NCBI GenBank assembly: GCA_905178155.1 | Contig: CAJINV010000001.1 | Coordinates: 8,029,599 to 8,093,598 of the forward strand | Source of the DNA: Amoebophrya sp. A120 | Lineage: Eukaryota; Protista; Dinoflagellata | Length of the DNA: 64,000 nucleotides | Reading direction: 5' to 3' | In this document: positions 16,801 to 48,963 of the stretch, in pieces | How the letters are laid out: each line of letters opens with the position of its first letter | How positions within the stretch are numbered: position 1 is the stretch's first letter | Notes under the pieces: generated by a model | Seen by the model: the letters and a program-made list of their open reading frames with translations, nothing else | What the model was told of the DNA's origin: nothing | Databases searched by the model: none | Translations under genes and position numbers: made by a program

Positions 16801-19800
16801 ATCACAAGCGAAGAACTGGGAGGTATTTACAAGGGAACTATCAATGTGACATTTCTGATTGCTTAAAACCCTGTTACGCGACATCACCACAGGTCGACAT
16901 CGGCTCGGGTGTCACCGAATGGTACCAGCAGAGCCTGAACACAGTGAAACACAGCGGCCACCACAGCCAGTACAAGATATCAAAAGGAAAAATCCCCCCT
17001 CCCCATATCGAAATGGAAATCTGTGATGCGGGATTTGTGTACACAAACCAGCTTTGCCTTGCAGTGGAGGACTGCAGACAGATACAAAGCCGGATTAGGG
17101 CTGTTTCGGCGTAGGCGCCTAGCAAGGTAGGGACATTCTCTGTAGGCCAGACAGCATTACAAATTGCCTGCAGAACGCGGCGGGGTTTTTTTGTTTGTCT
17201 TCCTGCAATACAGTGACGATTTGTGACCTCAAATCAGCATCGCAAATTTTGAGAAGTATCCCGGTCTGGTATGGGGAGGGGGGATTTTTCCTTTTGATAC
17301 AAGAAGCTGGGACTTCCTGTGCACCTTGCGGGACGCTTGGCTTTTCATGTGCTCCAAGCAATGCGATTTCTGAAGCACATCGGGTACATCCATACGGACT
17401 TGAAGCCAGAAAACATCTGCTTGCATTTGGACACCAATGGATTCAAGAGACGCAACCCGGACAACCTTCACCTTTTTCCCCCGACCTGGCACGACGACGC
17501 GGTGCATGGCAATCTGACGCCAGAAAAGAAAGCAGCGTTACAAAAACTTCCGCCTGGCGTGCTAAATACATTGAAGGCCAGAGAAACCGACATCCGCAAC
17601 AACACGCATTTTACCGCTTCTCATGGCCTGAAATTGGGCGACCTGGAGTCGTATCAATTGCAAATATGTCTGAGTCTGGATTTTTTGTCATTGAGGCTTT
17701 GAAGGACGACGAGCACGAGATGAGGATCTGTGATGCATGGAAGGATAAGAGTAAGCAGTTTTGTTCTACTTTGGCTGGACATGAGTTTGTCACAGAAAAT
17801 AAGGTGGGATAGACTTCGCAACAATACCCGAGAAAATTGTTTTAACGGGTCCGTGCAGTATAAACAGCTGCCTTGATCATGTCATGTACATGTTTCACGA
17901 CTCAGCATGACAAGTGGCATGCTTTTAATATGCAGAAGCAGACTCAGACATTTTTTCATTTGACAAGTTTTACTTCGCGAACTGCACCGCAAAATTAGCA
18001 GATTTGGGAGAGATTCAAAAGGCTCCTATCAACGTGCCGTCGCAAAAGGATTCTATTCAGCCTCCGTGGTATAGAGCGCCCGAAGTGTACTTCGGCGATT
18101 GGCCGCTAACTCCGGCGATGGACATGTGGTCGATGGCGGTAACCATGCACAGTCTATGCACGGGCGGCGACATGCTGTTCCCCAGCCATACAAAGGACCA
18201 CGGCCAGCCGCCGCACGGATGTTGCACGTAATAGTGTGATTTTTACGCATTGTGTTGACACTTCTATTCTATCCCTATGTTCTGGATTTACTCGGATAAA
18301 GTGCGTGTTTTCCATCGGGCTTCGAGTGTATGAGCATTATGACCAAGTAGAAGATGACCTCCAAAACGGCAACGACAGCGATCTTGCGGCGCGGATCGTT
18401 TGGAGAAGATCTGCAGGTCTCGCTGGAGTTGTAGAGCATCATCAAAGATGGACACGGTGTCACAATCACAATGATTATTTTGTTAAAACAAAAAACAAAC
18501 AGGAAACGCTGGCACATGCAACGCATATTTGAGATAACCGGGCCATGTCCCAGATACCTCGTCGATCGGGCCGTGGAAGCGCACCACAAAGCTTATTTCC
18601 AGCATGACGAGCACGGTCAGCGAATTTTCGGCGAGAATGATATGCCAGTGCCGAAGGAGGGCGCTGCCGACAATCCAATGCGACCCAAGGCTTTGAAGGT
18701 ACTTCCTTATCTGGTGCGACGTAAGGATAAGCTTAAGCACGCTACATGACTCATGTAGCTTGCTTACGATGAGCTCTAACTCTATTTCTACCGTGGACAG
18801 AGAATTTGCAGAGTCATATTAAGGGGCTCTAGTGGCAATATTATCAAGAGGAACGACTCGTGGCGATTTCGGCTTGTGCGAAAGCGACTTCTAGATTTAT
18901 ATCATGCAGGATGTTGTAACCAAAATGGGACACGTGAAGATCGTGAGGGTCATTGTCATTCCATGAAATGAACATAACGCAGGCAAACGAGGGCCCCCTA
19001 ATCCAGGATTTCTTCAGTATGACAACGGACTTCACCAAAAACGAGTTACATCTCGCGAAGTGCTACGACTACCTGAAAAACCCGCGCGACGCGGGACCGG
19101 CGATTTGGGACCAAAAGAAAGTTTTCAAGCGGCAGCACAATCTGATGAGCATGTTTCAGTTGACTCGCATGCAATACCGACAGCTGGCAGTTCCGCTATC
19201 GCTGGCAAAAATCATGTTTGTGGAACCGGTTCGTGGAAAAACCGAGGTTGATGTACGGAAGTCGGACGAAATGCGGCACTTCATTTTCTCGCAGGGTGCG
19301 GTCACCACGAAACTGGAACACGCAGGGCTCCGGCAGTCGTTTAACTTCGACCCGGCTACCCTGATGGGTGTCTCTGAATTCACTACGAACGTGGAGCAAG
19401 ACTTCGAGGCAGAGATGGACGAAAATAAGTTCTACGAGTCCGAGACGATTCGGAAAACGGAGGAGGACATCAAGAAAGCCAGTCCCAGCCCCGACGATGA
19501 CGAGGACGAGGGTCCGGCGTTCGAGCCGATGCAGGATGACGGTGCGGCGCAGCCGGAGGAGCAGGCAAACAAGGAGCCGAACAGCCCGGAAGAGGCGCGC
19601 TCAGGCAAAGAAGACGACGACAACGACGATTCAAGCGATAGTGATAGTGGTTCCAGTGGCAGCAGCTCTGGTGAAGACGAGGACAGCGACAAAGATGAAG
19701 CTGCTGCCAGCCCGGCGGAAGGAGACTCGAATGTTGACGCAGCTGCCGATAAAGTTGCGGCCGGCCCGGATGGCGTGCCGGACCCGGAGCAGGCAGAGAA

Positions 19801-20254
19801 GGAAGCGGCTGATGCGGAGATGCCAGATGCAAACGGTGGCGTCGATGCGGCCAATGTTGCCGTCCCGGCAAAGGCCGCGGCGAGTTCGAGTAGCGCAAGC
19901 GCCAACTCGGGCGACGGCAATGCTGCAAAAGGATCAGCGGCTCAGCCAGACGAGTCCGATCGCACTCCGGCGGGTGCTGATGTCACGCCGGGTGGAGTGG
20001 CTGCACCGAAGAGAAGGCAGCCGCCAGCTCTCCCTCCGCAACCTGCTGCCCGGAGACCCACCGGCATGGACCTTAAGAGTGTGCAAGATCAGCTTCGCGC
20101 AAAGTTGGAGATTGAGTACTGCGACCTGATTTGGCAAATGATCACCCTCGACAAGGAATTGAGGATAACTCCCGAAAAGGCAATCAAGCATGAGTTTTTC
20201 CGCACCCTCCAGCGACTGAAGCCGGAGGCTTTCAAGACGGTCCATGATGCCTGA
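13835..20254 (+). CDS. CMGC-group (SRPK/DYRK/CLK-like) Ser/Thr kinase, 10 exons
   Basis: Phase-consistent exons: 13835-14264, 14535-14824, 15062-15192, 15322-16053, 16405-16654, 16893-16976, 17304-17649, 17969-18227, 18503-18698, 18983-20254. The join yields GKGQFGTV, VALK, HTDLKPEN, KLADLG, IQPPWYRAPE, DMWS and RITPEKAIKHEFF. Seven introns are GT-AG and two are non-canonical TIR introns. Confidence 0.8.
16978..17299. mobile_element. Introner/MITE-like element A (322 bp) forming a non-canonical intron
   Basis: Perfect 30-bp TIR TATCAAAAGGAAAAATCCCCCCTCCCCATA (16978-17007 / 17270-17299) and perfect 5-bp TSD CAAGA (16973-77 / 17300-04). Removing 327 nt joins HSQYK to KLGLPVHLAG, just before the HTDLKPEN region. 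Confidence 0.92.
17652..17965. mobile_element. Introner/MITE-like element B (314 bp) forming a non-canonical intron
   Basis: 27-bp TIR with 23/27 matches (TATCAATTGCAAATATGTCTGAGTCTG) and degenerate TSD AGTCG/AGTTT. Removing 319 nt gives LGDLE-FYFANCTAKLADLG. Same family as the fumarase element. Confidence 0.88.
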
Positions 20255-21302
20255 ACATGAGCAGCACCATCTCCATGTCAACCGGCGGTATAAGGGACTG
20301 CAGTCCGGCTCCCCTCCGGGCGACGCGTCATTTTCGACCTTTCTGCAGCATATGACTGCAATTTTCGAAATCAAAATCATGGCATTTTTCTAGAACGACT
20401 TGGCGTTAGCGCCCGCCATAAATGGAGAAGAACGATTCCCATTTTCGTATCTCTAAACTTTTTGAATATTCTCAGATAAGTAGAAAGATACATCGCGAGT
20501 AAAGTAGAATATGTAGCAAACAGCAAGCGACTGCGACACCGATAGCATACGCACCTATCTCTGATCATATCAGCATTATGTCTGAGAATCATCGAGGAGA
20601 AGTTATGATAATTGATGATCCTGCCCCTGATTTTTCCTCATCAACGCTTTGATGACTGTTCCGTCGCACAATATGCCCATTCCTTCTGTGTGTTTTTGTT
20701 TGGGTTTTGCATAAGTACTTCTGATGAGGTTCTTCAGCAGTGACTAAAGCATCATCCACTTCGTGTGGTGTCATGTTCGTTACACGAATGCAGCAGCAGT
20801 TGCAGCATCGTTGGAGGTTTTGCCATTGCTCACGTTTTCGTCCGAGAGAAATAAGTCGGCACGTCAAAGTGAAGATAGAGGTGTGCATGGTTATTTCGTC
20901 GTCCACGTTCCATTCTGTTTGTCTTTGCCGGAAACCCGAGTTGTTCCACCTGTCTTCCTGAGAGTGCGGTCGCGAGATGCAGCCTTCGACGAGAGTACTT
21001 CTTTGGTGGGACGAGAGGCAGATGATTGTACAACTTCCGGCAAAGAAATTTCTACTAGTATACTTTGCTGCAGCTCTTCTCTAGTTCAGTCGCAAGTTGT
21101 GACGTCGTCGCAAAGTAGTGCTTGTCCCTTATGCAGCAACAGAAATAGATGCATATCAGCTGATGGAGCAAAGCATTTTTATCACACTCACTAGTTGTTC
21201 ACTTTTGATTAAATCATGCGACACAAAATGATGTTGATGCGGAGATAACAAGCTCCTCTGCTTGTCTCTGGTAGTATTATTCCTCACGGTAGCTAGAGCA
21301 AG

Positions 21303-24300
21303 ATGGCTTTCCGTGCCGACGCTATCGCAAACCTGCCGCAAACAGAGCAGGAGGATGATCTGAATGTGTACAACCAGAGCCAACGGAATGGCCCGTCGCA
21401 GATTGGAACCTCGACCGAGTACAAATGGGACAAGGAGTATTGGGCCGAGAGTCGGGTGCATCCGGGAGACCGCAACGTGTGGTACGCGTTGAACCCACGG
21501 TTTTCGGACCTAGCGAAGTACTATGCGCGGCACGCACAGTGGGCGGAACGGCTGGTCCGCCGGCTGCTAGGGGAGGTGGAGAAGGAGGAGCGAAAAACGG
21601 CGGAGGTCGTAGACAATATGTACCAGTCCATGGCGGAGCGGATGGCACGTCGCTCGGCCGAGCTCGAGAATCAAATTTTCGTGCGGAACCCGTTCATGGA
21701 GGACCCCACCAGCCCGGCCACGTTCGCGAAACGCCTGCAGGAAACGCTAGACCAGCGCGGCGCCATCTTGCGTTCTCGAGCAATGGCCGCGAGTCGCAAG
21801 TATGCAAGCTTTTTCATTTATCGTGCGTTCGAGTACTTGTTGGAAGTTGATGAACCCCAGACAGTAATTATTAACGTCTGCGTGTTGACAAGTGATTTCC
21901 AAAAGATGTTGGTTTTTTTCATATAGTACTTTTTTTGCAATTTTGACGAGCCGCAACAGCCTTCTTCTACGCCATAAAATAGGGGCGGCGCAGTCGCTGG
22001 GCAAACGGGTGCAAAGCTGGGTGCGGATGCGCTGACCCTGCTCGCACGGTGGTTTGAGTTTCACGTAAAGGAGCCCGGGGGCAACCACGACAGCAAGGCG
22101 CGGATCCACCCCTTCACATGGCGGACGCCGTTCTTGACCGAGAACGAAATCAGCCAGGCCGACGTGTTGAAGATTCTCGGGGGTCTCTTCGGGGACAAGC
22201 TTGTCACGGCGGGCGTCGGCCATGCGATGTTGGGCGGTACTGCAGCCTCGGCGGTCATGGACGTGATGCCGGGAAAGAACAACTCGGAGCTGCCGAAAAA
22301 CGCGATGTGGTATGCGGAGGACGAGTCCCCCGTGAAGCCGTGCAACCAGATCAAAGATTTCGAGGAGTGCACGGCTGCGTGGAAGGACGACGACAAACGG
22401 TGCAAGTTTCTCAACACGGCAAAACCTGTATGAGAATGCACAACTCGACGTTTCCCTTTTTTCCCTCATTTGTTGAACAAGGGCACAAGCAACAACAGAA
22501 GGATCAGCGACGAACACGGAGCCCTGGCATAGAAGGCCACATGTTGCTGCGCCGAATTAGGTCGTATTGATTGAGTGTTTCCAGAATTATTTGTGATGCA
22601 ACCAGTAGGTACCAAAATAAATGCAGCAACTAGATTTGGCATTTTGTATGGCAAGCGAGGCCATCAAGGGGAAGTACTAGTTGTGCACTCCCATAACTCG
22701 GGGAGAAGCTCGACGGGGACGCGTACCTACAAAAGATCGACAAAGCCGGCGCCATGTCCGACGAAGCGAAGGCGGATGCGTTGAAAAAGTACAACATGCA
22801 CGGGCGGTGCCAGAAGGTGATGTGCCGCGACCACCTGAACGCCACGAGCTGCACGTCGGACGAGCATAACGAGTGCGTGTGGCAGGAGGGGGACCTGCGG
22901 AGCGTGCGGTCCAAACCGGAGAAGTATCGGGACTGGTTCGTGCAGACGCAGAGCAGCGAGGAAAACCTGAAAGAACTGGCGAAGCCGGAGAACGGGGTGG
23001 AGCGCCGGACGATACGGAACTTGCTCGGGGGAATGGAACTACCGCCCGACGCGGAAACGGACGACCCGCAGGCAGTCCGGCCCTGCCAGGAGCTGCGGCG
23101 CATGCTGGCGCTGAAACGGGTCTCGGAGAAGAAGCGCATGAAGCGGTGGGAACACTTACTCAACGCGGGCGTTTTAACCAAGGACGAGGTCACGTTGCAG
23201 CGGCGCGAGGGCGAGAAGGTGCTGATCGCGGGAGAAAACATCGTGAAGGAGTACTGCCCGAACGAACACTGCGAGGCCCGGCACGCCACGGTGCGGGCGT
23301 TGGACGACGAGCGGCAGTACAAGGAGTGGATGGAGCTGCGGAACGTGAAATTGCTCGGGGACGCGGAGAAGGCCAAGGAGGAGACGAAGACCAAAGTGAT
23401 TGAAGGCGGGCACGACGACCCGGAGGGCACCTACCTGGACGAGGAGTCGGGCCTGGATCTGCGGAAACACTTCAAAAGCGGGCTGGAATTCCACGATTTG
23501 GGGTACGAACCCGGAAAAGTGAACGTGATGGACGGGTATTCGAAGATGCTCGGAGTTCTGGACGGCAACTACGCCATGGACGACTTCAACGCAAAATTCG
23601 CGGAGGAAAAAAAGAAACTGGCCGGGCTGCAGGCCACGGACGAGGAGAAGGCGATGGAAGAGAAAAAGATGTTCGAGAAACTGCTGCACAAAGACCCCAG
23701 GTTTCGCCAGGACGGGGTCTTCAGCACGCGCCTGTTTCAGGAGGGCGCGGAGCCCGAGAAGTCGGACTTCGAAGAGCAGGAGGCCATGAGTACCAACCAA
23801 AACAGCGATACGGTCGCGATGGGGGCAGAGGCGGAACAAGCAAAAGCAGACCGGGAGCAGGCGGAGAAAGAAGCCGCGAATAAACCGCAGACGGAAAAAT
23901 CGGAAACTGGCGAACAAACGCTGACCACGAAAGAGACTGGCAGCACAAGCAGCAGTACAACAAGTCAACTCGAGGTGAACCGGGAGAAGGAGGCTGGTAC
24001 GAGGAAAAGCGGTTCCAAGCTGTTGAGAGGAATTGACAACGAAAGTAAAACAAAAAACTCGCCATCAAGAAGTTCCAAGACTGCTTACGACAAGTCGCAC
24101 TCTCAGGAAAGGCATTCGTCCAAGCGAAACAAGATTGAGGACTGGCACGATCATGTGAACGAGGGCCAAAAAAGGGCGCGCGCCGGGCTTGCAACTGTCA
24201 CACGTGGGAACCACCATGCGCCTGCTGCAGTGAACAGTTTCCGGAACTTTTCCCCTCCCCACGGACACGGACATCGCACAATAGCTGCGGCACGAAAGAC

Positions 24301-25780
24301 GCAACATGCGGCCAAGAAAATGATCAGAGGCCTACCAATGGACGCAAGATACTTTCCACCGAAGGAACGATTACAAAGGAGTAAGCAGCCATCCAGGATT
24401 ATTACGGAAATTGAGGGGGATGCGCTTTTCGCAAATCCAAATACCATTACTCCCAGTGCCAATAGAAAGTGGAGAAACAACCCGACGCATGTGACGGAGT
24501 TTTTGTCCGTCTCAGCCGATGATTCCGTTTCGGGAACGAGCGATCAAACACACCAGCAGCATCACGCCCGGCATCGCATTTCCAAGAAAGCATCCTCCAC
24601 GACGTCAAGGCATAACCCCACCGCGTTTGTCCTGTACCGAGACCGGGATCCCTCGTACCTGGAAGAAGGCAGCGACAAGGAAGGTTTCATCAGTCGTGTG
24701 CGGGAGGGGGAGATGCACGATGAGGACAAGACCGGAGCCTTTGAGTGCGCCGGTCCGAAAAAGCTGGAGCAACTGCACGAGGTGTACGACGCCGCGCTGC
24801 AGAACATCAAGAAGCACGCGTTTTCCCACCTCCCCGTCCGGTTTTGGGTGGACACGATGAAGAAGCTGAACGGGATCCCGAAGAGCTCCAAAGTCCGCAC
24901 GACCGAGATGACCGACCAGCAGCACTTCACGCTCGTGCGCGAGTCCCTTTCGTTGTACGACCGGGTGGTCGGGTTCGTGGGGAAGCTGCAGCGCAAAATC
25001 GGCATGGAACTGGTGGAACACGAAATCAACCCCGGGCTGTACAGCGAAATGCTCCACGACTCGAACACGCTGCGGGACGTCGCGAAGGAGCTGTTCGTCG
25101 AGCGGTACAAGTGCAAAGACGCACAAAAAATGAACCGGTTTGCGCGCTTCAGCGACGAAAGCAGGACCAGCATGTTTCTCGACATTGGCAGGAGTGGCGG
25201 GAGTTCAGTTTCTGCCTTTGGTCGTGATGAAGCCAAAAATGTTGCCACGCGTCACCTTGTCGGAAGGAAGCGACATCGAACGAGTTTCGGAAATACCGCC
25301 GTCCACGTCCACTACAGATCCGAGCCAGCGAGCGCACAGGATCCGGGCCGCAAGGTTCTGAAACCTTATGTCACGACGACTACCCAGTTCACCGGCACTC
25401 AGCAAAGCGATGCAGCATCTGGCTCTCTTAGTTTGAACAGACCAGAGGTGAAGCTGAAAATTATGGTCGAGGACGCGCCGCCGCTGCGAGCACGGGGATT
25501 CGGGTGGCATTTTTCTGCAAAAATGGCTGCCGCGATGGACCTCCACCAGAATCCTCGAAGCCAACCTCTACTAGGAGCCTCTGGCGTGGACGGGCTGCTA
25601 GACTTGTCCCGAGTCGAAAGGGAGACGCACTTGTTTCCGCACGGCGTCACATCCTTCGTCGCAGACAGCGACTACGATCCGTTCACGAAAACAGGCGGAG
25701 TAGACACGGGAGCTACAACTTGTGGCCCTGAGGTAGAGGCTGGCGCGCCGTGCAGTTTCCGCGTCCCATTCGGGGGCTAG
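21303..25780 (+). CDS. Large hypothetical protein, 3 exons
   Basis: Exons 21303-21799, 21983-~22424 and ~22697-25780. The first intron is GT-AG, phase 2 (21800-21982); the second is a TIR element. Contains Cys clusters and coiled coils; no family recognised. Confidence 0.6.
22429..22695. mobile_element. Introner/MITE-like element C (267 bp)
   Basis: TIR TATGAGAATGCACAACT / AGTTGTGCACTCCCATA (15/17; 23/30 when extended) with flanks ACCTG/ACTCG. Removing 272 nt joins the 22134 and 22754 frames. Confidence 0.75.
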
Positions 25781-26547
25781 CGCGAAGACAGCCCGATCTA
25801 CGAAGAAAGAGTTGTATAAGTATGCGAACTCCGCCTGTAAAGGTGAAGCCATTTCTGGTTACCACTTTATCCTGCAATCCCATGCTGAACTCTTTTTGTG
25901 TTGCATAGTACGTACTAATAAATGCTGCACAGCAGCACGACTTTCAATGTACAATTCAAAATTCCATCTGTTTCGACGGTTTTTTGGAGGAACGGAAAAC
26001 AAACGTACAATGAATTTCACCTTGCTTATTTTGCATTATCTAAGCATGCAGCCACTTCTTTTCGATCAAGTGAGTCAGGTGCGTTCGCCGCCTGACTGGA
26101 CCTGCGACAGGAAAGTTCGTCGTCTGCTACAGCAAATAGAAAACTGTTCTCAAACGGATCGCTGCAGGTACGGCGGGCGCTCACTCAATTTATACTTCGA
26201 GAGACCAAACTGCAACAAGGGGAGACGAAGAGTGAGCTTCTCGGCGTGGGAGGGTGTATTGCTCACTGTCGATTACTTATTCGTTTTTGCACAGCACTCT
26301 CACAGTTCCTGGCTCACCGGATAGCATACCTCCACCATCATAGAAGCTTTCTTGGCATTGCCTTTCTGTTTGTAAATTCTTTTTTAGCTTGCTTACGATT
26401 TTTTTAACATCATCTCTGGAAATTCATAGAGCGTATGTTCGTGAGCCGGCACCATGTCAGTTACAAGCACGTGGTCGATGAAGAAGTGAATTTTGTCAGC
26501 CTGCTGCCGCGACCGACATTACTTGATCGGATCCGTCGACATTCTCT

Positions 26548-28134
26548 ATGGCAGAGGTTGAAGAAGGCCCCCCTGCTGTCGACTACACGCAACGGCCGAG
26601 CGAGCCCGTGCGCATCCAGTCGTTTCTTCAACTTGCTTCGTTCCATGTCGGGAAAGACCCGGGCGACGAGTCGGAGCTCGTGGGCGGGCGCGTCCGTCTC
26701 TGGCTGTACTGGATCGACCCCCGTATGGCGAATTGGCCGGAGGGCACGCCCCTGCCCACGACACTTTGGCGCCCGGAGTGCGGCATCATGTGGCGCCTGA
26801 AGCGGATCCTCGATGACGACGAAAAGAAGAAAACGACCGCCTCCACCACGGTGGTCCTTACGGAGAAGGAGCACACCGCCGCGGCAGGTTTCCAGCACAT
26901 GCCACAACCGCAGATCTGGAACGGCCAGGACGCCAGGAAGCGGGGTCTGGTGTTCATAAAGGTCTTGCTGGAAGTCACGGACGTGGACATGCTGGAGGAT
27001 GAGTACCGTTTGAAAGTTTTCCCCTTCGACGTGCTGAGGATAGACTGCGCGATCTGGATGAGCGGGCAGCAGCGTATGGAAAGCACGGACAAAGTGGACG
27101 TGGAATTTTTTCCGATGCAACTCGGCGGGCCGAATGGTATCAAAGAGGATGGAATAAAGAAGGACCACTTGGAAAACGACCATGAAGATGTGAAAAACCA
27201 GTTTTACCCGCTTCTGATCAGCACGGGAAAGCCGTCAGAAACTAGTATCGACAATGCTGCCGGCGCGGCCGAATCGGTTGCTCTGGAGCTCGATCCACAA
27301 AAGGGAAACCGCATAGCGGTCGGCTGTCGAACGAAGGCGGGGGAGCTGGAGCTGAGCGGCATCACCTTTGCTGGCAACACGCACACCTCCATGATGACGG
27401 GAGTGCAATACTCCGATGTGATCTTCTCGTTCCACTTGAAACGCCGCCCGCAGCTCTATCTGTGGAAGGGCGTTGTCCCGTTGTCCCTCTGCTTTCTGTA
27501 CGGCCTTCTCACTACGTTTTTGCACCCACAGGAGCTTGGCGGGAGGTTGCAGACGCACACGGCGTTGTTCCTCACCGTCTTCGCGATTCAATGGGTGCTC
27601 GCGGAGCGGGTGCCCAAAATCTGCTACCTGACTTTGCTTGACCATTTAGTGTTCGCCGTAGTTGCGGCCCTGACGATACTAGTTTTCGGTAGCTGCGCAG
27701 CGTACGCTTTTGGCCTCGGCGCGGCAGGGATTATCGGGACAGATGACAATAGCGAGTCATTCGACCTGAAAGGGGCAAGGATGGTGGATTTCGTGACGTT
27801 GTTGGTTGTTCTGATGACCTTTGCCGCACATTTCACGTACGTGGCTAGGACACGATCGCTGCGAAGCGTGATCTGGGGCGGTGGGCGCAGCGGACCGTTG
27901 AGTGGTATCAAAGTGGGACCGAGCAGTGGCGCCGCACAGGCATCGGCCACGCCTGAAAGCGATATAACGGTGTTCGGCACGCGATCATGGAAGAAAGGGA
28001 CGCATATTATCAATGGTGTGTGCGTGCCAAAACCTGGTAATACCTTCGTCTTAGACGCTGAAAACTTTGGAACGTCGAAACAGAAGCGGCTAGGCGTTTC
28101 CGGGCGCGGCTTACGGGTTGGAGAGGCCTTTTGA
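26548..28134 (+). CDS. Pentameric ligand-gated ion channel subunit, Cys-less (Pro-loop, ELIC/GLIC-like)
   Basis: LWRP, FPFD Pro-loop, YSDVIFSFHLKRRPQLYLWKGVVP (pre-M1/M1), M2-M3 loop VPKICYLTLLD and four TM segments. Confidence 0.82.
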   Translation: MAEVEEGPPAVDYTQRPSEPVRIQSFLQLASFHVGKDPGDESELVGGRVRLWLYWIDPRMANWPEGTPLPTTLWRPECGIMWRLKRILDDDEKKKTTASTTVVLTEKEHTAAAGFQHMPQPQIWNGQDARKRGLVFIKVLLEVTDVDMLEDEYRLKVFPFDVLRIDCAIWMSGQQRMESTDKVDVEFFPMQLGGPNGIKEDGIKKDHLENDHEDVKNQFYPLLISTGKPSETSIDNAAGAAESVALELDPQKGNRIAVGCRTKAGELELSGITFAGNTHTSMMTGVQYSDVIFSFHLKRRPQLYLWKGVVPLSLCFLYGLLTTFLHPQELGGRLQTHTALFLTVFAIQWVLAERVPKICYLTLLDHLVFAVVAALTILVFGSCAAYAFGLGAAGIIGTDDNSESFDLKGARMVDFVTLLVVLMTFAAHFTYVARTRSLRSVIWGGGRSGPLSGIKVGPSSGAAQASATPESDITVFGTRSWKKGTHIINGVCVPKPGNTFVLDAENFGTSKQKRLGVSGRGLRVGEAF

Positions 28135-28575
28135 GGAAGCGACGTGCAGGGGTGTTGCCTTACTTTGCAAGTTGTGTGAACAAATGTGCTGGGTCCTTGC
28201 ATAATTGCGCTCTACTTTGCGGGTACGTAGCCCTAAGTACATTCGCACCGACATTTTGATCGCCTTCATTTCGACCAGCGATTGGTCACAACTACTGTCG
28301 CTGTGAAGTGTTAGTCTGTCGTGTCTCGTCAGTTTCCTTTGTTTCTTTCGCTCGGAGAGCGAGGCCAAACTGGAACTGCAAAAGGGAAAGAGACTTTTCA
28401 AAAGTGCTTAGCGACGTGAGGCCGCGAGTGTCATCGATTTTTCGGATCCCCCTTCGTTTCGGATCGGATTCCCTTTTTGCTTCATCAATCTGACAGAATC
28501 AAACTCAAAACTACGCTCGAAGTGGTGGAAATATAAAGTGGATGAATCGGTAGGATTCATGGACTCTCAACAAAT

Positions 28576-34511: not shown

Positions 34512-34610
34512 TTCCGTGTATTGCCCTACATACTAGAATGACAAGTAGATGCATCGCAGGAAGCACAAGCGGGACATTGCAAAATGGAAAATGTATTCTT
34601 CTAAATAACA

Positions 34611-38347: not shown

Positions 38348-38591
38348 GTTGCAGCTTCTGCGCTCATTTTAACGTCCATCGCGTATAACGGCGAGGCAGG
38401 CTGTGTCCTGCGTTCTTTCTCAACGACAACAAAAAGAAAAACAGCAAACAGATAAGACAGAAGCAGGCGCGGCGCTGACTCGTGTTCGTGGATTTGGTTT
38501 AGTTGTTGCACTCCGGGTAAAGTCTTAGGTGAGAGAGAAGAATTCCTTTCCTGATTTATGAGACAGTTACCGGAACGAAGCCGATTCTCGT

Positions 38592-41108
38592 ATGGCAATG
38601 GCGATCGCGGAAGTCGCCGAAGAGAGATTGATCAGCATCTTTGCGGACGCTCTTGCGCCGAAATCAAAGACTTGCTTCCGTCTGGTCCGTTGTTTCAGTT
38701 TAACTCAGTTTACTTTGCTCTTTGTGCTTGGTTTTTGTGTAGCAGAGTTTCGTGTAATTCGAGCGCATACTACAATATCAACTTCGCAAGCATTTTTTGT
38801 TCTCGACAGGATGCTGTTTATTCCGCGCGGTCGGGGCTGGCAGCAGCCCGAGCAGAACGACCAAGTGGACCCGCAGCGGCGGCGCTACAGCGGTGTGATC
38901 TCCTTCTTGTTGATGATGATGTTCCTGTCGCTGCTCTTCAACCGCGACAAGCGCGGCCCCGACGGGAGGAACGGCAGCAGTAACGACCGGGAGGGGTGGG
39001 CCCGGAATCCGCCACCGGAGGAGATGAAGAACCTGGTTTACCCCTGGGACGCAGCGGGTTTGCCGGCCGAGGCACGGCTGCTGTACGTCGGGCCCGCGAG
39101 CACGACGGAGCCATTGATCGCGGAACACGATCGAGTTCTTGCGCCGCAGAATGCACGAAGACTCGTATGTAGTCCCGCAGTGGCGAAAAAGGACGCTTCG
39201 TCAAAGTCTGCCGGTGCGAACTCAGGAAAGGATAACAAGGAGGAACGAGAAAGTAATACTCGGCCAAGCGAGCCTGGGTGCGGCGAAAGCAGTAAGACCT
39301 GCCGACAACGTATGCTACAGGCCAACGACAAGTGGGCGTGTGAGACTCTGGTTCCGAAGTGGGGGAGGAACCTGCTCGTAACGGCAATAACACCGCCGAA
39401 AACTGTGCCGGAGGAAAGTAAAGGCGATGCGAAAAAAAGCGCACCAAACAAGCCGACGATATTACTGAACAGCACAAGCGCGCCGGACACCACGGGCCAG
39501 GCGGCACAGCGCGACTTTGAATTTCTTCTGGGCACGTTTTCCGCGTCGCGTCCAAAGTTACAAGAAATGAACAAGAAGTTGATGCAAAGTAGCTCTAAGG
39601 CAAGAACAGAGAAAATTACGCGCCGTCTGCCGACTAGTAGTGCCGGGGGCACTAGCACTCCTATCGCGATACCAAATACTAATAAAACCACTATCGTGTG
39701 GTCGCCGCGTTTAAAAATGCTCCTGAAAACGTCTCACGTGCTGGTAGAGCCACCGGGAAACGCGGTCTCTGCGGACGAAGATGACTACGTCGCCGACTAT
39801 GAGCCGAAACTTCTCCCCGTCCGGGTTGATGGAGGTGCAGCTTCCGAAGCTGCCGACTCAGCACCAATCTTCGGCGACTTTTTTAGGAAAAGGCACGATT
39901 CAACATCCACTTCAGGAGAAGACGCCACAGGGAGTAGCTCGTCGAAAGTACAACCAGGTCACGACGACGCAGAGCTGACTTTGAAGGTCAACAAGCGGAG
40001 CTATTTCACGGATGGTACGTTGCTGGGGACCGTGCTATCCACGATTTTCAGTCCGGACGTTCGCGGGGCCGCGCTCGTGGGAGCAAAGTGGCTCGACGTC
40101 GGAGCAAGCTTGCTGCAGCAGCAGTTGAGACTGGGAGGTTCGTCGGAGGCAGGAGCTGATGATTCGGAGGACACTTCGTCAAAAAGCACGAGTGTAGTGC
40201 AGGAAGTAGTGCGGAAGTCAGAAGACGGCGCCGACACCACGCTGCCCGAATTTCGAGCTCTTGACCAGCAGACTCGCTCCCCAAGAAATACCGATCTTGT
40301 TCGACCTCCCACTGGGAACGAAATAAGCATTGCTCGCGAGGATGCCGTCGTTCCCGGGCCGCAGCTTGGTGCTGGAAGAAGCATGCTCGAAAAAACCGAG
40401 GAACTTCGGCCGAAGGAGAGCTTTCTGTGCTTTGTGGACCTTGCGAAGAAGAGATTGCGAGGGCAGATTTCCCAAAGTGTGGTCGGAACGCTTGTGCACG
40501 CTTTTTTTGATGCAGACACGCGAAAACTAGTCTTGGTCTTCCGAAACGCCGACCGCATCGAGGTTCTCACCATAGACGCAGAGAAGATGAACAGAGCGAC
40601 CGGGAAGGCGTTCACTAGTAAAATAACCAGGAGCAGAAGCTTATTACCAGTGGCGCTCACCGCAAAAACAGATAGGAAAAACGACGATGATGCCAACGCA
40701 ATAGCTGCGCTTGATGAAGAACCCTCAAGGCAAGTAGCGGACGATCAATCGCAAGAATCTCATATGTCATCTTCGCCTACAGCAGCAGTCGCTTCTGGAA
40801 GAAAATTGGCACAACCAGAGGACGAGAATTCCCCCGTTCGCCGGTTTTTCTTCCGGTCCACACAGAGTCTGTATCTGGTGCAGGCGCCGGTAACTTCTGG
40901 ATACGTGGTTTTTGTGTCCGGGCAGCGCGTGGCAATGGTGCTTTCCCTTCGCGAGAATAAGCTCATCGAAGAGCGGTATCTGCCCTGGAGCTTTCTGAGC
41001 CAGGACCTGGCTCGGGTGCGGCGAAGAATACCGGACCGCTACGTGCAGAGTTCGGTAGCAACTGAAGAAGTTCTGAAACCCTGCCCGAAGTGCTGCGGAA
41101 TGGAGTAG
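38592..41108 (+). CDS. Hypothetical membrane-anchored protein (start 38592 or 38811)
   Basis: 838-codon ORF with a hydrophobic helix GVISFLLMMMFLSLLF near the N-terminus, low-complexity linkers and C-terminal CPKCC. Confidence 0.6.
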   Translation: MAMAIAEVAEERLISIFADALAPKSKTCFRLVRCFSLTQFTLLFVLGFCVAEFRVIRAHTTISTSQAFFVLDRMLFIPRGRGWQQPEQNDQVDPQRRRYSGVISFLLMMMFLSLLFNRDKRGPDGRNGSSNDREGWARNPPPEEMKNLVYPWDAAGLPAEARLLYVGPASTTEPLIAEHDRVLAPQNARRLVCSPAVAKKDASSKSAGANSGKDNKEERESNTRPSEPGCGESSKTCRQRMLQANDKWACETLVPKWGRNLLVTAITPPKTVPEESKGDAKKSAPNKPTILLNSTSAPDTTGQAAQRDFEFLLGTFSASRPKLQEMNKKLMQSSSKARTEKITRRLPTSSAGGTSTPIAIPNTNKTTIVWSPRLKMLLKTSHVLVEPPGNAVSADEDDYVADYEPKLLPVRVDGGAASEAADSAPIFGDFFRKRHDSTSTSGEDATGSSSSKVQPGHDDAELTLKVNKRSYFTDGTLLGTVLSTIFSPDVRGAALVGAKWLDVGASLLQQQLRLGGSSEAGADDSEDTSSKSTSVVQEVVRKSEDGADTTLPEFRALDQQTRSPRNTDLVRPPTGNEISIAREDAVVPGPQLGAGRSMLEKTEELRPKESFLCFVDLAKKRLRGQISQSVVGTLVHAFFDADTRKLVLVFRNADRIEVLTIDAEKMNRATGKAFTSKITRSRSLLPVALTAKTDRKNDDDANAIAALDEEPSRQVADDQSQESHMSSSPTAAVASGRKLAQPEDENSPVRRFFFRSTQSLYLVQAPVTSGYVVFVSGQRVAMVLSLRENKLIEERYLPWSFLSQDLARVRRRIPDRYVQSSVATEEVLKPCPKCCGME

Positions 41109-41362
41109 GGGTCCTGTTCAGGGCGGGCATTTCTATTGTGTACGCTTGTTAATGTTAAAGTTAATCTTCTCTCATGCATTGTTGTGGAAGTTAGTATAGT
41201 GCGAAGGCGAAGGGACAGGGAGTGCATTTTGCAGTGAGTGCAAAAATTCGTTGATGCACAGAAGTAGAAGTAGTAAAGAGTCTTGGAATACAACAATCCC
41301 GAGCACGCTGTGGGTACGCATTCGCATTGTTCTTTCAAAGATTTGGTATTGGTTCTCGTGCC

Positions 41363-41414
41363 TGTCGTCTTTCGTGTTTATTCTTATTGTGTCGTCTTTC
41401 GTGTTTATTCTTAT
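41363..41414. repeat. Intergenic tandem duplication, 2 x 25 bp, period 27
   Basis: TGTCGTCTTTCGTGTTTATTCTTAT at 41363 and 41390. Confidence 0.85.
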
Positions 41415-41875
41415 ATATGGCGTCAATCTTTTCACGAAAATGCGTCCATTTCATTGAATTCGTCGTCCTGAAATCGTCGTTCTTGAATCGTGTGTTTTGT
41501 CGTCCATCAAACAATCTTTATGGGTAGAAATATCCACGATCCTCATGATCATTTCCTCGTGCTGGGAGTATCGTGCCGACAGAAGTCGTCCACCTTATTA
41601 ATATGCGTGATTCTGCGTGTAGGTTTACAGGAGATGCGTAAGAACTTTCAACCCAGCCGCTGCAATAAGGAGCGTCTTCACTACTCTTCCCAGAGTTGCA
41701 CCCTCTGTTTCTACTGCTTACATCACCCCCAGAGCGACGTTTCTTCGAATTGCGTTTTCATCATGCAATTGTAAAACGAAATCGAAATCGAATGGATATG
41801 GAAAACCATACATGATCTATCTTCATCTCTAGAAGCATGGTTTATTGCTAGACTCCTTTCATAAATTCATTCTCG

Positions 41876-44800
41876 ATGATCTTGTTGCGCCCGCGACCAG
41901 GCCGTCGCAAGGACGGCAGTGCGTCTACCTTTTCCGGCTTCGTGCACACGTTTTCTGAGGAAACACTTAGATTTATGTACGTGGCGACTGTCTTCCTGCA
42001 CTTTTGTGATTGGGGGCTGCTGCGCACAGCCACAGCGTCTTCGTTGATCAATGACAAGAGAACCGCCGACTCGCAAACGAGTATTTTGCGGGGCAGGAAG
42101 AGGAACAGCCGGGAGAGCAGCAGCCGTGATGGAAGTATGGCATCACGTAGATCAGGTGGTTATGCTCGACCTCTGCGAGATCGAGATGAGGAAAATAAAA
42201 GTGCCTTACTAGGCTCTCCCCGAGCGCGAAATCGTTCTCGGGGCCAGGAGTTGCTGGTTCCGTCACAAGAGACATCGACCGAGGAAGAGACCACACGGGC
42301 TTCCCCTGGTGGAAAGGGCAATCAGACTGATGGTGATGATACCGCAAAAGTTTGCAAGCTCAGCAGCACTGGTGTGGTAACAAAAAAAATGCGGAAACCC
42401 ACGAAGAAGGTCTTGCGTGCTTCCGACGACGCGCAAGAGAGACTAAGGCACATGTTTGGAGAGCATTCCTGGCGCAGTTGCAAGTGCTACGATCGTATGA
42501 ATTGCAAATATCGTCGTGCCCGGGTCCTGAAACTGGTGATGCGGAATTGTGGATGGTTGGATAGGAACAGTTCTAAGTGCATCCAAGCATGATAAATTTT
42601 TCAAACGACCCTTTCGCCGGCGCAGCGCTCACAAAGAAGGTGCGCTATTGTGGGTTGTGCAACACTTTCATCTGGTCCTTTGAAAGGAATCATGCAAGTT
42701 AAGCTGTGTATTTGCAAGCTCAACTTTTCCGGAGACGGAGATATTTGCATTGCATAGGCCGACCACGCAGCGATGAGGCAGAGCAGCGCAGACTCAACAA
42801 CGAAAGCTCGTTGACTTCTTCCTTTTCAATTGACGGCACCGCGGACTGCGGCACTTCGACAGCAGTGCGGCAGGCATGTAGTGTTTGCAAGGAGTGGTCT
42901 GCAAGCAGTGACAGCACAGGCTGTGGAGGTTTCGCGCTGAAACAAGAAAACGGAAAGTGTGTAGGACGAGTGTATCCGCAACCGCGGCAGCTTCTGACTG
43001 CATCATCCTCGGCAGCCGGTCATACGAAGGGCAGTTTTCTGGAAATGTTTCAACGTAAATCTAAATATTTGGCGTCCGCGACCACTTCTGGAAACGAAAA
43101 GGCAAAGTCGAACCTCGGCGCCGCCAAAAGGCACCAGCAGGATACCACTGCAGACAAGGAGGCGGACGGTATCCATAGCTCCGGGACGTGCGCGGTTAAT
43201 CGGCGGGGTCTGACTGCCGCCATGTCGAAAACTTTTTCCGTTCTGGACACAAAGATCTCCAAGGAAGACCAGGAGCGGATGAACGACGCTGAACTGAGTT
43301 CGAATGCCGAAAACGATGTTGAGAGTCTTGGAAATAGAATCCAAACTGCCGCACTGCCGAACAAGAATGCGGGTACCGGTGTCGTGTACGACACAGTGAA
43401 GTGGGTTCTGGAGCGATCGGCACTCGCAAGTTCGAGCGAGAGCGCTGCCGCGATTCCGGACCTCGCGCATTCGGTTGTTAACGCGACGTTCCAGGAAGCG
43501 ACGAACGGTGCGATCGATGAGCCGCCCGCTCGTCTGCAGAGTGCCATCGTCCTAATCGAACTCGAAGTCGCTGTAGTCACGTCAGTCCCGACGGGCGCCT
43601 ATGTTGGTCGTGACCCCGCAGACACCGCAATGAGAGCAGCGAAGGAAGTGCTCGTAAGACGTGACGTCGAAGCGACGGAGGCCGGCTGGCTGGCGAAACG
43701 CTATGTCGAGAGCTACTTCAAGCTTGGCGCTGCGGATGAACTGATAAAAGCAAATATTTTGGGGGCTTTGGGGCTTCCTGTACTGACACCTCTTCCCAAA
43801 AACGCGCTCAGGGACGCGGCGTTCGCGCGGCTGCAGAGGGTTGTGAAGAGCAATGTCGGCGATGAAGACAGAGGTGCCGTGGTGGCAGCCTTGACGCGGA
43901 CGATACTTGGGATCGTTGACGGAGCGAGCATTGATGAAGCGACGGTCACCACGGACGCTGAAGCGATTGCGGACGCGGCTATCGTGTGGCATTCGGATCG
44001 GAATGACACAACCCTTGCAGCCGTCCACCACGCCATCAAAACCGCTCTCCTCGCCGCCGGGTTTACGTGGCCAGATCAAATGGAGCATAACACGGAAAAC
44101 ACCGCTGCGGCAGACACGATTGCGGACGGTAATTCTACTGCGCTACCCAGCGCCGCTTCTGCAGAAGCACGGATTCGCGCATACGTGCGAGATAACGAAG
44201 GGACGCATCACCGAGACTTTGTGCGCAACCTAAGACCGATTCTACAGACTGCAGGTCTGCCGCAAACCGGCTCACCACCACGGGATCTTTTTCACGCGAC
44301 TACCATCGCTGACGCCGTTTGCGGCGTAGATTCATCATGGGTTCTTCCAAAAGAGGATATCAACGTGGACGGTCTTTCCGCTGCGATCACGGCGGCGCTC
44401 ACCGAGGCTCAGACCTTTGCAGACACAGATGAAACCTCCACCGTGGTCTCGTCCTTTCTATTGAAGCTTGACGCACCAGAACACCAAGACAGGGCGTCGC
44501 TCGAAAAGCTCGAAGATGTGGTACTCGAGGTCTACGGCGGTTTGGAATCGACAGAGAAAGAAACCGTACGCGTAGCAGAGCTCTACGAAGCGGTCGAGCA
44601 AAAACGCTGGTGCGAACACGGCACCCATGAGGACGAGTGTACGCCTTTTGTGTGCACTTTCACGCCAAGAAGCGAGCTCACCACGACTGAGCAACCAGTA
44701 GAACGACCCGACCGGCACAACGACGCGGACGCGTGGAGATGGCTCGCAACCGTAGACGGCGACATTGATCTAAATTTGCGTGTTCCGTATCTTACGAATG

Positions 44801-46008
44801 CACAAATTGAGCTCGCAGGACTTGCGAATGGCACGGAAATAGTCGCGCAACAGATCTTATACCACTGGTATTGCACGACCAGCACCAGTGAAGAGGTTGA
44901 GGGGGAGGACGCAGGGTTGCAATCTCGAGCGCATCAAGAAGGGAAGCCAGATACCGATGAGCAGTGGACGTTCTGGGTGCGAAGACAGTTCGACACCGCA
45001 TTGGATTGCGGAGAAGTTCCGGGTTCACGACCCGCAACGGCTAGCGCCTCCAGCGAAAACGGCACAGCGGATTCACTGGCAATCCCGTCAGATGAGAGCA
45101 ATAAAGGTACCGATCCGGCGAACGGAACTATTTCAGCGGCCCTGTCCTCCAGCAGGACTGCGCTGACGCCGGACGGCGCTTCGGGGCCGGCCCTGTTTCT
45201 CGCGTTGTGCGGCGGCTTCCTCGGGATGTCAGCGCTTGTGTCGGTAATTTACGTGTGTTGCTGCATGGGCGGCGGGCGCAATGCAGCTGGTAATCTGTCC
45301 GATCCCTACTCCGCGGGCGGGCACTACTCACATTTGGATCGGAATTTCGTTGACCTAGCGCTGAACCGAACGTCTGAGGCAGACGACTTCGCGCGTGTCT
45401 CCGACGAGGAATTTCCCACGGGTGAGTACACGGGTCCAAGGATAATTTCCTCTCCAAAGAAACACCAAGAGGGTAGTACTGGCGCTTCTGCCATGTTGGA
45501 CGACACGGTAGATAAGAAAGCACGCAAGGTCAAGAAAGCCCAATCTAAGGTCACTTTCCTGGAGCAAGGATATGTGGCTATAACAACTAAAGCATCAGGA
45601 TCGACGCAGGCCAAAAAGCAGCGTTCGGGCAAAAGCAGCGAGGATCGAGCTCTAGTAGTTGAAGCGGCAATGGATTTACTGACGCCGCGCGGCCCCTCGG
45701 AGGATTACAATGCGGCCGATTTGGCGCAACGGGGCAGATCTGAATCCGCGGGCTACGACGGATCAACATTCCTAAATCCCGCGGTTGACTACGACAACGT
45801 TGGAGCCCAGAGCACCGATGGCTTCAAGGGAGGCCGAATGTCGACCGGGTCTGGACTGGAGGCAGTGGCTTCGGGACTCGAGCGAGCTGCGAAAACGCCC
45901 GAGCAGGTCATTCAAGAGAAGTTCGCCACCAAGCAAATTCCCGGACCACCTCCCGCTCCGCGCATCAGGACCGACGCGGCTTTGCAGAAGGCGCCCATTC
46001 CAAGGTGA
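41876..46008 (+). CDS. Large type-I membrane surface protein, split into ORFs 41876-42592 and 42706-46008
   Basis: Hydrophobic leader at 41975 (MYVATVFLHFCDWGLL), Cys-rich segments and a TM helix ALFLALCGGFLGMSALVSVIYVCCCM. The junction between the two ORFs is unresolved. Confidence 0.55.
42588..42694. mobile_element. Candidate short TIR introner (107 bp)
   Basis: Imperfect TIR CATGATAAATTTTTCAAACGACC / GGTCCTTTGAAAGGAATCATG flanked by the direct repeat CAAG (42584-87 / 42695-98), located exactly where the upstream ORF stops. Confidence 0.5.
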
Positions 46009-46673
46009 AGCAGCTTACGCGTGCTGCGTCGATGCGTTAGCTCGATACGCACGACCTGTAGTTAGATGAAATTAAGACAGAAGTAGAAACTGTCCCCGTA
46101 ATAGCTACCTAGCAGGTAGAATTTTTGACAACGACAAGAAATCTACCCCATTCATCATCCCATAGGATAGATACCCATTCTTTCAGATAAAAAAGAACGC
46201 ACGATGACAAAAAGAGGAGGAAACACCGATGCTTCCACCTTTGATGCATATGCAAGTACAGTCTCACTTCTTTGCTGCTGGTAGATGGGCATCACCAGGT
46301 GCCGCTGTTCGATGTCTAGCCAACGCTGATCCAGAACATTGAGTAGGTAAGTCGGTACAAAGATCACCAAACGTCGCCTTTCGGTAAAACGAAAAGACCA
46401 CATACTAAGTTCTAGATCGTGAATTTTTGTTCGACCACAAGTGGCCTTCCTCTGTCCCAAGACGCATGCGCAATTAAGTAGTTTCACCCCTTTGTGTCTT
46501 CATGATTGAGCAGGAGCAGCGATCCCGAAGATAAGATGAAAATCAGTTATGCAGAAAGGATCATCTAAACGAGTACAGGTTTGTGTATGATGAAATCATA
46601 ACCCGGACTACGACCCGCTCACCTCTCGAATTCTGTTGTTTTGCAGTGCTGCTGTTGGCAGAAGTTCTTCACG

Positions 46674-48963
46674 ATGCCGTTCATCAGCCTTCGAAGTTGC
46701 CTTTTCCCCCAGCACCTACTTCTTGGGGCCCTAGTACAGCTCAACAGTCTCTTCGCGGCCGGCGAGCGACCGGATTTCCGGTGCACCGCCGACTGCCGCG
46801 TCGAGAAGGACACCATGGGGGAAATCCAAGTGCCGGCCGCCGCGTTGTGGGGGGCGCAGACGCAGCGCAGCTTGGAAAATTTCGTTATCGGGGACGACGA
46901 AATGCCCACCGAATTGATCCGGGCGTTCGGGGTACAGAAGAAGGCGTGCGCGCTGGCGAATCGCAAAGCGTTGGGCGACAAAATTTCTGACGCGATCCAG
47001 CAGGCGGCGGACCAGGTTTTGGCCGGCAAGTACGCGGACCAGTTTCCGCTTGTCGTGTACCAGACCGGGAGTGGCACGCAGACCAATATGAACGTGAACG
47101 AGGTGTTGGCCAACCTCGCAAACGAATACCTCGGGGAGACCGATCGCAGCAAGAAGGCGCCAGTGCACCCGAACGACCACGTGAACCGCGGGCAGTCGAC
47201 CAACGACGCGTTCCCGACCGCGATGCACATCGCCGCGGTTCTGTCCGTCCAGCGCAAGTTGCTCCCCGCCCTGGAGAAATTGCACATGGCGCTGAACAAA
47301 AAAGCGAAGGAGTTCGCCGACGTGGTGAAGATTGGGCGCACCCACATGCAGGACGCGACGCCGCTGACCCTGGGCCAGGAGTTCGGCGCCTGGGCGGAGC
47401 AGGTGAAGCTGTCCAAGAACCGGCTGCAAGCCGCGCTCCCGCGGCTCTACGCGCTGCCCCAGGGCGGCACCGCGGTCGGAACGGGGCTGAATCAGGTCGA
47501 GGGCTTCGACAAGAAATTTGCGGAGTACGTCGGCAGCATCGTCGAAATTCCCGGGTTCCGGACGAACGAGAACAAGTTCGAAGGCATCGCGGCGCACGAC
47601 GCTTTATGGATTGTAAAAATGTCTGGGTCTGGAAGAATGCAAGATTTGTCATGCTTGTCTGGCATGACTCTTAAATCTGTCATGCACATGGCCCAAGAGA
47701 CGTTTTTTTCTGTCATGCGGAGACGCAGCTTGTCATGCAGAATAGGCAACACCTACAAGCTCAGAAATTTGTCATGCTGAGCCAGCACTTGTGGCCTCCT
47801 CATGCTACGCCACTCAGCATCACAAGTTTCCAGACCCAGACATTTTTACATTTGATACGCGTTCGTGGAGCTCGCCGGTGTGCAGAATACCATCGCGGGC
47901 ACCTTCATGAAGCTGGCCAACGATCTGCGGCTGCTGTCCTCGGGCCCGACGGGGGGCTTGGCGGAACTTTGGTTGCCCGCCAACGAACCGGGGTCCTCCA
48001 TCATGCCGGGGAAAGTCAACCCGACGCAGGCCGAGGCCATGAGCATGGTGGCAGCCCAGGTAATGGGCAACGCGGTGGCGGTCAGCGTCGCGAACTCCCA
48101 CGGCCACCTGGATCTGCAGGCGTTTAAACCTGTCATCATTTTCAACATTTTGAAATCGAACAACCTACTCGCGGACGTCGCCGTGTCTTTCGCAGACAAG
48201 TGCGTGTCTGGCATTCAGCCCAACTTGCCCAAAATTCAGGAACACCTGGACAAAAACCTCATGCTGGTCACGGCCCTGAACCCAACGATAGGTACATAGT
48301 AGTAGTACTTTTTGTTCTGACAATGAATCGAGCGACCGGTAAGGTTAGTCGAGGCAAGTGACAAATCATGATCATCTTCGTTCTTCAAGATCCAATGCTA
48401 CACACGATCCAAGCGAAAATTTGTAAACGGATCATGGAGGTAGAGGAGCTATGTATGGAACGAACGACCATGAAAAATGATGACAATTACCTAAACCTAA
48501 TTCTCCACGGAGCCGCTCATGCGGCTTTGATGAGACCTTTAATAAATCGTATTCGTACTGTCTGAAAAATGTGAAGACGTCATTAGATCACAAGAATGAA
48601 AAACCTGATGAGAAACTTCAACCATAGAATCACTCCACGCCGAGGCGAAATGCTTTGCTGGTGACGATTCCTGCGAAACACATGCACTACCATCTGACAA
48701 AGAGCAAGTAAACGATCAACTTCGTAAAAGATTAGAGAATGATCGCGCCAAAAGGCTTCGATGAAACAAATTTCAATCATGATCCTACAGGTTACGAAAA
48801 GGCCGCAGATGTAGCGAAGACTGCTTTGAAGGAGGGGAAAACGTTGAAGCAGGTCGCTGTGTTTGAAAAGAAATACTTGACTGCAGCGCAATTTGACGCC
48901 GCCGTCGTACCTGCAAAGATGGTTCGGCCCGCACCTGCCAGCGGCGCAAAATCCGAATTATGA
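46674..48963 (+). CDS. fumC: Class II fumarate hydratase, 3 exons
   Basis: [42 protein letters not shown] and [13 protein letters not shown]. Exons 46674-47602, 47861-48291 and 48791-48963; intron 1 is a TIR element and intron 2 is GT-AG, phase 1. Confidence 0.95.
47605..47857. mobile_element. Introner/MITE-like element D (253 bp) forming a non-canonical intron in fumarase
   Basis: 30-bp TIR with 27/30 matches, including a perfect 23-bp core TGTAAAAATGTCTGGGTCTGGAA (47612-34 / 47828-50); TSD CGCTT/CGCGT. Removing 258 nt restores conserved AAHDA-FVELAG. Confidence 0.93.

Follow-up and report, generated by a model that had tools for sequence, protein, structure and literature searches.

The 64,000-nt stretch of the Amoebophrya sp. 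A120 genome analysed here (contig CAJINV010000001.1, positions 8,029,599 to 8,093,598; in the following, the window) contains five short elements with ends of the type TAT...ATA, termed E1 to E5, which lie inside four protein-coding genes of the + strand and appear to be removed from their transcripts as introns without GT-AG boundaries. E1 and E2 interrupt a protein kinase-like gene (12573..20254) coding for 1369 amino acids with a Pkinase match, for which mapping of the deposited protein P0122 yields 10 exons separated by 7 GT-AG introns and the two elements. E3 is located in a gene for a 1340-amino-acid protein without a Pfam family (21303..25780; P0123, P0124), E5 in a gene for a 1288-amino-acid protein, equally without a Pfam family (41876..46008; P0125), and E4 in the gene for a class II fumarate hydratase of 510 amino acids (46674..48963; P0002). 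The deposited proteins P0002, P0122 and P0123 for the fumarase, the kinase and the E3 host protein are 100% identical to the frames of the window and carry the source name Amoebophrya sp. A120. The frame hosting E5 is likewise 100% identical to P0125, which we take to belong to the same A120 annotation. Intron 1 of the kinase model (13069-14534; 1466 nt, GT-AG) also contains an open frame of 195 codons (13823-14410) without a Pfam match, possibly a missed exon or an insertion.

Four of these elements had been described in an initial annotation of the window, and their positions and terminal inverted repeats (TIRs) were confirmed in the sequence, whereas E5 had been missed although it lies within the same span. 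E1 (16978..17299, 322 bp) has arms matching at 30 of 30 positions (TATCAAAAGGAAAAATCCCC...) and is flanked by the perfect duplication CAAGA/CAAGA (16973-16977 and 17300-17304), and E4 (47605..47857, 253 bp) has arms matching at 27 of 30 positions and the duplication CGCTT/CGCGT (4/5). The arms of E2 (17652..17965, 314 bp) match at about 22 of 25 positions, the right arm reading TGT, with the duplication AGTCG/AGTTT (3/5), and E3 (22429..22695, 267 bp) starts with TAT and has a degenerate TIR (70% over 44 nt) between the repeats ACCTG/ACTCG (3/5). E5 (42496..42756, 261 bp) is a TAT...ATA element with the duplication GATCG/GGCCG (3/5). The TAT start ascribed to the TIRs thus does not apply to the right arm of E2, and the 5-bp flanking direct repeats ascribed to the four elements are perfect only at E1. 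Taken together, 15 of the 20 flanking positions of E1-E4 match (binomial p about 6e-6). E1-E4 are conspicuous among the inverted repeats of the window, and a search for ends of the form T[AG]T...A[TC]A with at least 16 of 20 matching arm positions retrieved seven qualifying pairs, namely the five elements and two nested offsets, compared with 0-1 pairs in each of 10 block shuffles of the window used as control. The elements were also correctly described as devoid of coding capacity, the longest ATG-started frames inside them being 34-58 amino acids.

The assignment of E1-E4 to one family was rejected because only E2 and E4 have a TIR in common; the opening 16 bases of this TIR recur in E5, and the other two elements, E1 and E3, stand apart, with unrelated interiors. 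A motif of TAT, seven nucleotides and AAA is present in both arms of E1, E4 and E5 and in the left arm only of E2. In RNA folding, a terminal stem is predicted to close E1, E2, E3 and E4 (z = -8.3, -3.7, -3.3 and -7.0, respectively), and scanning the window against Rfam gave no match at the gathering score, and thus no group I, group II or other catalogued RNA. E4 further contains six TGTCATG-like heptamers (47647-47824), E2 three, and E1 and E3 one each, which may represent transposase-binding subterminal repeats.

The elements of the window are almost certainly the introner elements published for Amoebophrya sp. A120 by Farhat et al. (2021; PMC7789003). According to the accessible parts of that paper, A120 introners have TIRs starting with TAT, seven nucleotides and AAA, inverted repeats of 8-20 nt, direct repeats of 3-5 nt at the junctions, non-canonical ends, a mean length of about 240 nt and no transposase inside; 29,850 copies in 1,954 families were counted, and a hairpin model was put forward. 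An origin in A120, paired inverted ends, a direct repeat at the junction and boundaries other than GT-AG are all found in the window. In Dataset S2 of Gozashti et al. (2025; PMC12130899), as far as available, 58 A120 introner families are catalogued; most of 56 of these 58 rows carry the class TIR DNA with the superfamily unknown, many have 200-320 bp and TIRs of about 30 bp, family 38 is described as '5-bp TSD, TA/TA termini' and filed near Ginger, and the automatically assigned duplication lengths range from 2 to 11. The question whether such families had been catalogued is thereby answered, because the window stems from A120, whose elements of this kind are described in the former and catalogued in the latter study. 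The finding itself adds little, because the phenomenon is already known for A120 and the introns formed by E1-E5 are already contained in the deposited gene models. What is added here are the 5-bp duplications in relatives, the frame fit of the element plus 5 nt, the presence of both orientations and one register for five junctions. In the open literature searched, as far as its text was accessible, we found no statement that the register is fixed, that orientation is irrelevant or that adjoining GT-AG pairs are neglected, and Figs 3 and S19-S25 of PMC7789003 may show part of this; a term search of PMC13326754 and PMC13149111 gave no mention of Amoebophrya.

The intron junctions were inferred by mapping the four deposited proteins, whose gene models were built from transcript alignments, back to the window. 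The implied introns measure 327 nt (E1), 319 nt (E2), 272 nt (E3), 258 nt (E4) and 266 nt (E5), corresponding to the element plus 5 nt at all five sites. The first four lengths are exactly the deletions that had been predicted, and restoration of the host frame by deleting the element plus 5 nt, as initially proposed, reproduced the deposited proteins at 4/4 of these sites. This supports the proposed reading of the elements as non-autonomous copies of TIR DNA transposons acting as non-GT-AG introns. In the fumarase, deletion of the element plus 5 nt leaves HDA-x-V/L/I-E spaced as in the homologues (69 sequences displayed of 80 matched, out of 120), whereas plus 2 would leave one residue more and plus 8 one fewer. 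Counted from the first T of the element, the registers compatible with the proteins extend from -8 to 0 for E1, -1 to +3 for E2, -2 to 0 for E3, -6 to +1 for E4 and -3 to +1 for E5, and only two registers, -1/+4 and 0/+5, are common to all five junctions and fit equally well. In register -1/+4 the introns cover 16977-17303 (E1, AT-AG), 17651-17969 (E2, GT-TT), 22428-22699 (E3, GT-TC), 47604-47861 (E4, TT-CG) and 42495-42760 (E5, GT-CC).

A GT-AG register compatible with the protein exists at none of the five sites. The earlier claim that no register of the deletion gives GT-AG is thus valid for all protein-preserving registers but not in general, because E4 has a 258-nt GT-AG register shifted by 8 nt (47613-47870); this would change HDAFVEL to HDALWIL and does not match the deposited protein. 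The GT-AG pairs at E2 (element plus 3 and plus 6) are out of frame and were rejected as an explanation of the deposited protein, and those at E3 (plus 11, 22428-22705) and E5 (plus 2, 42495-42757) are in frame but would give products other than the deposited proteins. The remaining nine introns of the host genes are all of the GT-AG type, with GTAC, GTAT or GTAA as donors (9/9 GTA).

If the insertions simply broke the genes, the deposited proteins would be constructs of the annotation. This reading could invoke the annotation pipeline, which prefers the longest open frame (PMC7789003, available text), but the boundaries of the A120 gene models come from transcript alignments and 65% of the 66,565 RNA-supported A120 introns are non-canonical according to the same source. 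Furthermore, the flanking frames are open, the fumarase shares 78% identity with its A25 counterpart and a chaperonin gene is also split in frame by a copy (see below), and we consider broken genes a very improbable explanation. Excision of the elements from DNA in a somatic nucleus, in the manner of the internal eliminated sequences of ciliates, had been listed as another option and found no support. With their TA termini and the exact recovery of one copy of the duplication, the elements resemble those of ciliates; however, E1-E5 are present in the assembled genomic DNA and absent from the transcript-built models, and we know of no division into germline and soma in Syndiniales. We give this option next to no chance.

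Further copies were retrieved by scanning metagenome contigs with the arm motif of E2/E4. The scan covered 158 loci (L001-L158), all of accession series JACKZZ01, with about 510 estimated in the collection, and gave 198 arm matches. For 40 of these the fetched DNA contained no partner arm; the remainder yielded 128 distinct elements with flanks, mostly of 250-280 bp. E4 matched in 49/158 loci, the series containing copies 95-97% identical to it and the best matches reaching about 96-97%, and E1 matched in three of these loci selected by the E2/E4 motif (L058, L060 and L125; 71-78%). TAT/ATA termini are present in 122/128 relatives, one arm's terminus being fixed by the search pattern. The flanks lie outside the search pattern, and a perfect 5-bp duplication was found at 103/128 copies (mean identity 0.93), compared with values near chance (0.24-0.32) for lengths of 1-4 and 6-10. 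The base composition of the target is flat over the 103 sites with perfect duplications, and a target-site preference was therefore rejected. The JACKZZ01 copies look younger than those of the window, with 80% perfect duplications vs. 1/5. At L028 (701-1260), L038 (701-1273) and L125, two elements with separate duplications lie within 40-50 nt of each other, an arrangement which would leave micro-exons between hairpin introns.

The reading frames around these copies were called independently on each side with a codon model trained on the exons of the window, for which 83 elements had enough flanking sequence. A deletion of the element plus 2 modulo 3, equivalent to plus 5, was needed in 52/83 cases, rising to 27/34 at moderate and 17/17 at the highest confidence, with one third expected by chance. 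Pfam matches of any kind were obtained for the flank peptides in 6/68 cases, and in both cases of a split domain, DAGAT (L089) and Cpn60 (L108), the profile was continuous across exactly the element plus 5 nt. The JACKZZ01 copies are presumably also removed from transcripts.

An exact GT-AG register is available on either strand in 13/103 copies with perfect duplications, and on the sense strand in 1/27 coding copies. In a third alternative, a loose spliceosome would work without a fixed register, each copy using near-canonical dinucleotides in or near its duplication. The mixed ends published for A120 (GT 27%, AT 17%, AG 27% and AC 20%; 11,945 introns of 13 large families) favour such a model, as does the legend of Fig. 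3 in PMC7789003, which calls the positions variable. We simulated random 5-bp duplications around TAT...ATA, with an aligner sliding the junctions towards GT-AG or CT-AC under a scoring rule which we assumed from the behaviour of spliced aligners. The simulation gave GT 26%, AT 13%, AG 26% and AC 24%, near the published values. Because sliding alone yields similar dinucleotides, the published spread may be an artefact of junction placement, and we rejected the published tables as a means of fixing the register. Moreover, one register is common to 5/5 sites, three of which ignore a nearby GT-AG pair, and we regard a spliceosome without fixed register as improbable.

Because the ends are symmetric, the stem is predicted to form on either strand. 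A terminal stem of at least 20 bp was predicted in 102/102 folds (51 elements, both strands). The orientation on the host sense strand was analysed for 26 coding copies together with E1, E2 and E4, leaving out one 481-bp copy and with L039, E1 and E2 unlinked; the graph was built from strict global alignments with 0/113 inconsistent edges, after a looser one with 204/3008 had been discarded. Both orientations occur in two subfamilies (10 vs. 7 and 6 vs. 3), including a pair in opposite orientation with 92% identity, and L078 is oriented opposite to L089 and L108, with the strands supported by Pfam.

The explanation we favour by a modest degree is a hairpin-measured removal by the spliceosome; of its two parts, the fixed register measured from the hairpin is probable, and the spliceosome as catalyst is somewhat better than an even choice. 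The elements would be inserted by a putative DDE transposase without site preference, 5 bp of the target being duplicated; the duplication and the lack of preference are observed in the relatives. In the transcript, a predicted stem of roughly 25-35 bp would fold between the ends, whichever strand is transcribed. The 5' cut would then fall 1 nt before TAT, where N-TAT may mimic G-TA(C/T), the donor of the host, and the 3' cut would follow ATA at a distance of 4 nt, irrespective of the bases there, as judged from the five deposited proteins, with which a position one base later agrees equally well. The host codon sequence would be restored exactly, the element being lost with one duplication's worth of bases. 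A relaxed spliceosome is favoured because N-TAT retains +2T and +3A of the GTA donors of the host genes, because A120 keeps 83/89 spliceosomal proteins as well as U2, U4, U5 and U6, and because 15% of its canonical introns show this repeat layout (PMC7789003, accessible parts).

Alternatively, a cut-and-ligate machinery distinct from the spliceosome, such as has been proposed for the nonconventional introns of euglenids, might cut the same elements at the same hairpin-measured positions. We know of no candidate enzyme for it. The lack of a common acceptor, the tolerance of both orientations and the unused GT-AG pairs nearby are in favour of it, as are the facts that U1 was not detected in A120 (PMC7789003) and that the hairpin introns of euglenids leave as circles without lariats and need a spacing from paired end motifs (PMC11282704, PMC12501133), each as given in the available portions of these papers. 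Against it stand the agreement of N-TAT with the host GTA donor at +2 and +3, the gradation of repeat-bounded into canonical introns in A120 seen in the above 15%, and the removal of comparable transposon-derived non-canonical introns by a tunicate spliceosome (PMC11282704, in part). Because there is neither a common acceptor nor room for a polar internal signal, we consider this machinery a close rival, although a less probable one than the spliceosome.

Several observations weigh against a hairpin-measured cut by the spliceosome. The junctions rest on deposited gene models, which are predictions, and the register is based on five sites, chiefly on the mismatched duplications of E2, E3 and E5. 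No common feature is seen among the five acceptors of the shared register (AG, TT, TC, CG and CC), and a polar branch site is hard to reconcile with function in either orientation, which would suit a non-spliceosomal enzyme as well. The E3 host protein has a 34% identical A25 counterpart with a gap-free alignment across the E3 site, where the A25 protein reads L-G vs. P-G in the A120 model; L-G would be encoded by the duplication copy on the right, a matter of one residue in a divergent alignment. The arms of E3 read TAT-N7-CAC, without AAA at positions 11-13, which places this element only in the broader repeat-bounded class. The legend of Fig. 3 in the accessible part of PMC7789003 speaks of variable splice positions relative to the hairpin. 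Among the relatives, the plus-5 deletion did not fit at 7/34 confident coding sites, the codon model was wrong on 2/6 controls from the window, E2, E3 and E5 had no full-length relative in the 158 loci, which had been selected with the E2/E4 motif, and no transposase was found, the paired fetched copies reaching at most 623 bp.

The present analysis narrows the question of how Amoebophrya removes these introns to a fixed register, which would be readable at copies with mismatched duplications, to near-identical copies in opposite orientation and to E3, E4 and E5, the three sites where GT-AG and the hairpin geometry predict different products. We tentatively suggest, at slightly less than an even chance, that a single rule underlies the 'unprecedented variability' of A120, namely that TAT...ATA copies of either orientation and with any flanks are cut at 1 nt in front of the terminal hairpin and at 4 nt behind it despite adjoining in-frame GT-AG pairs. 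If true, this would be a splicing code using an RNA structure as a ruler without any acceptor sequence, exon insertion would be neutral at every site, and such a rule based on structure only would account for the harmless entry of transposon copies into exons by the tens of thousands. The published list of dinucleotides would then largely be an alignment artefact.

A separate element of 1070 bp is present at 54661-55730. Its ends read TAGCA...TGCTA and its TIRs are long but imperfect; it contains AAGTCAATTG repeats in its interior and has an 8-bp duplication matching at 7/8 positions (CAGAAGGT/AAGAAGGT). If 54659-55736 (1078 nt, GT...AG) is deleted, an exact fusion of two long frames results (…LQKVQT…), which makes the element a candidate for a canonical introner derived from a hAT-like MITE, a miniature transposable element with inverted repeats; the hAT label is presumed from the 8-bp duplication. 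The 158 loci, selected with the E2/E4 motif, contained no relative of it. All Pfam matches in the window (1-64000; kinases, Mog1, ferredoxin, riboflavin kinase, cyclophilin and fumarase) and its longest frames are on the + strand, the only one whose frames were scanned, and the GC skew is steadily positive; Amoebophrya has been described to have unidirectional gene clusters with such a layout. An exact tandem duplication of 25 nt with a spacing of 27 occurs at 41363-41414.

Among known systems, the transposons of the Ginger2/TDD group share the TIR structure, with 5-bp duplications in TDD-4 and TDD-5 (PMC2836005, accessible portion), and A120 family 38 is filed near Ginger. In contrast to the elements described here, Ginger termini read TGTNR and the duplications are mostly of 4 bp, whereas TGT is found on one arm of E2 only; membership was rejected on the termini. 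The TIR introners of Micromonas and Aureococcus and the introners of Polarella, as described in the accessible literature, are likewise MITE-like insertions with target duplications which become introns, but their splice sites, brought along or co-opted, are canonical or near-canonical (GT/GC-AG), which is not the case here, an exact GT-AG register being available in only 1/27 coding copies. The nonconventional introns of euglenids (PMC11282704, PMC12501133, in part) resemble the A120 elements in their terminal pairing, free junction dinucleotides, proposed MITE origin and spacing from a paired motif. They are excised as circles and differ in belonging to an unrelated lineage, in a purine at the exon start and in a CAG-like...CTG-like signature a few bases inside; the signature 5'-N3CDG...CH'G-N5-6 is absent from E1-E4, which in the shared register start with ATATCA, GTATCA, GTATGA and TTATGG and have no CDG at +4 to +6. 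Among the A120 families of PMC12130899, compared by the available table descriptions, most agree with the window elements in being TIR DNA, and many in a length of 200-320 bp with TIRs of about 30 bp. The introners of PMC7789003, as far as the text is accessible, differ in repeats of 8-20 nt and variable positions, compared with arms of 25-35 nt and one register for five sites here, and in duplications of 3-5 nt, where the E2/E4 family has strictly 5 bp, and E3 lacks their AAA; in turn, they share with the elements of the window the organism, a similar length (about 240 nt on average), the absence of an internal transposase, the motif of TAT, seven nucleotides and AAA, the direct repeats at the junctions, the non-canonical boundaries and the paired ends.

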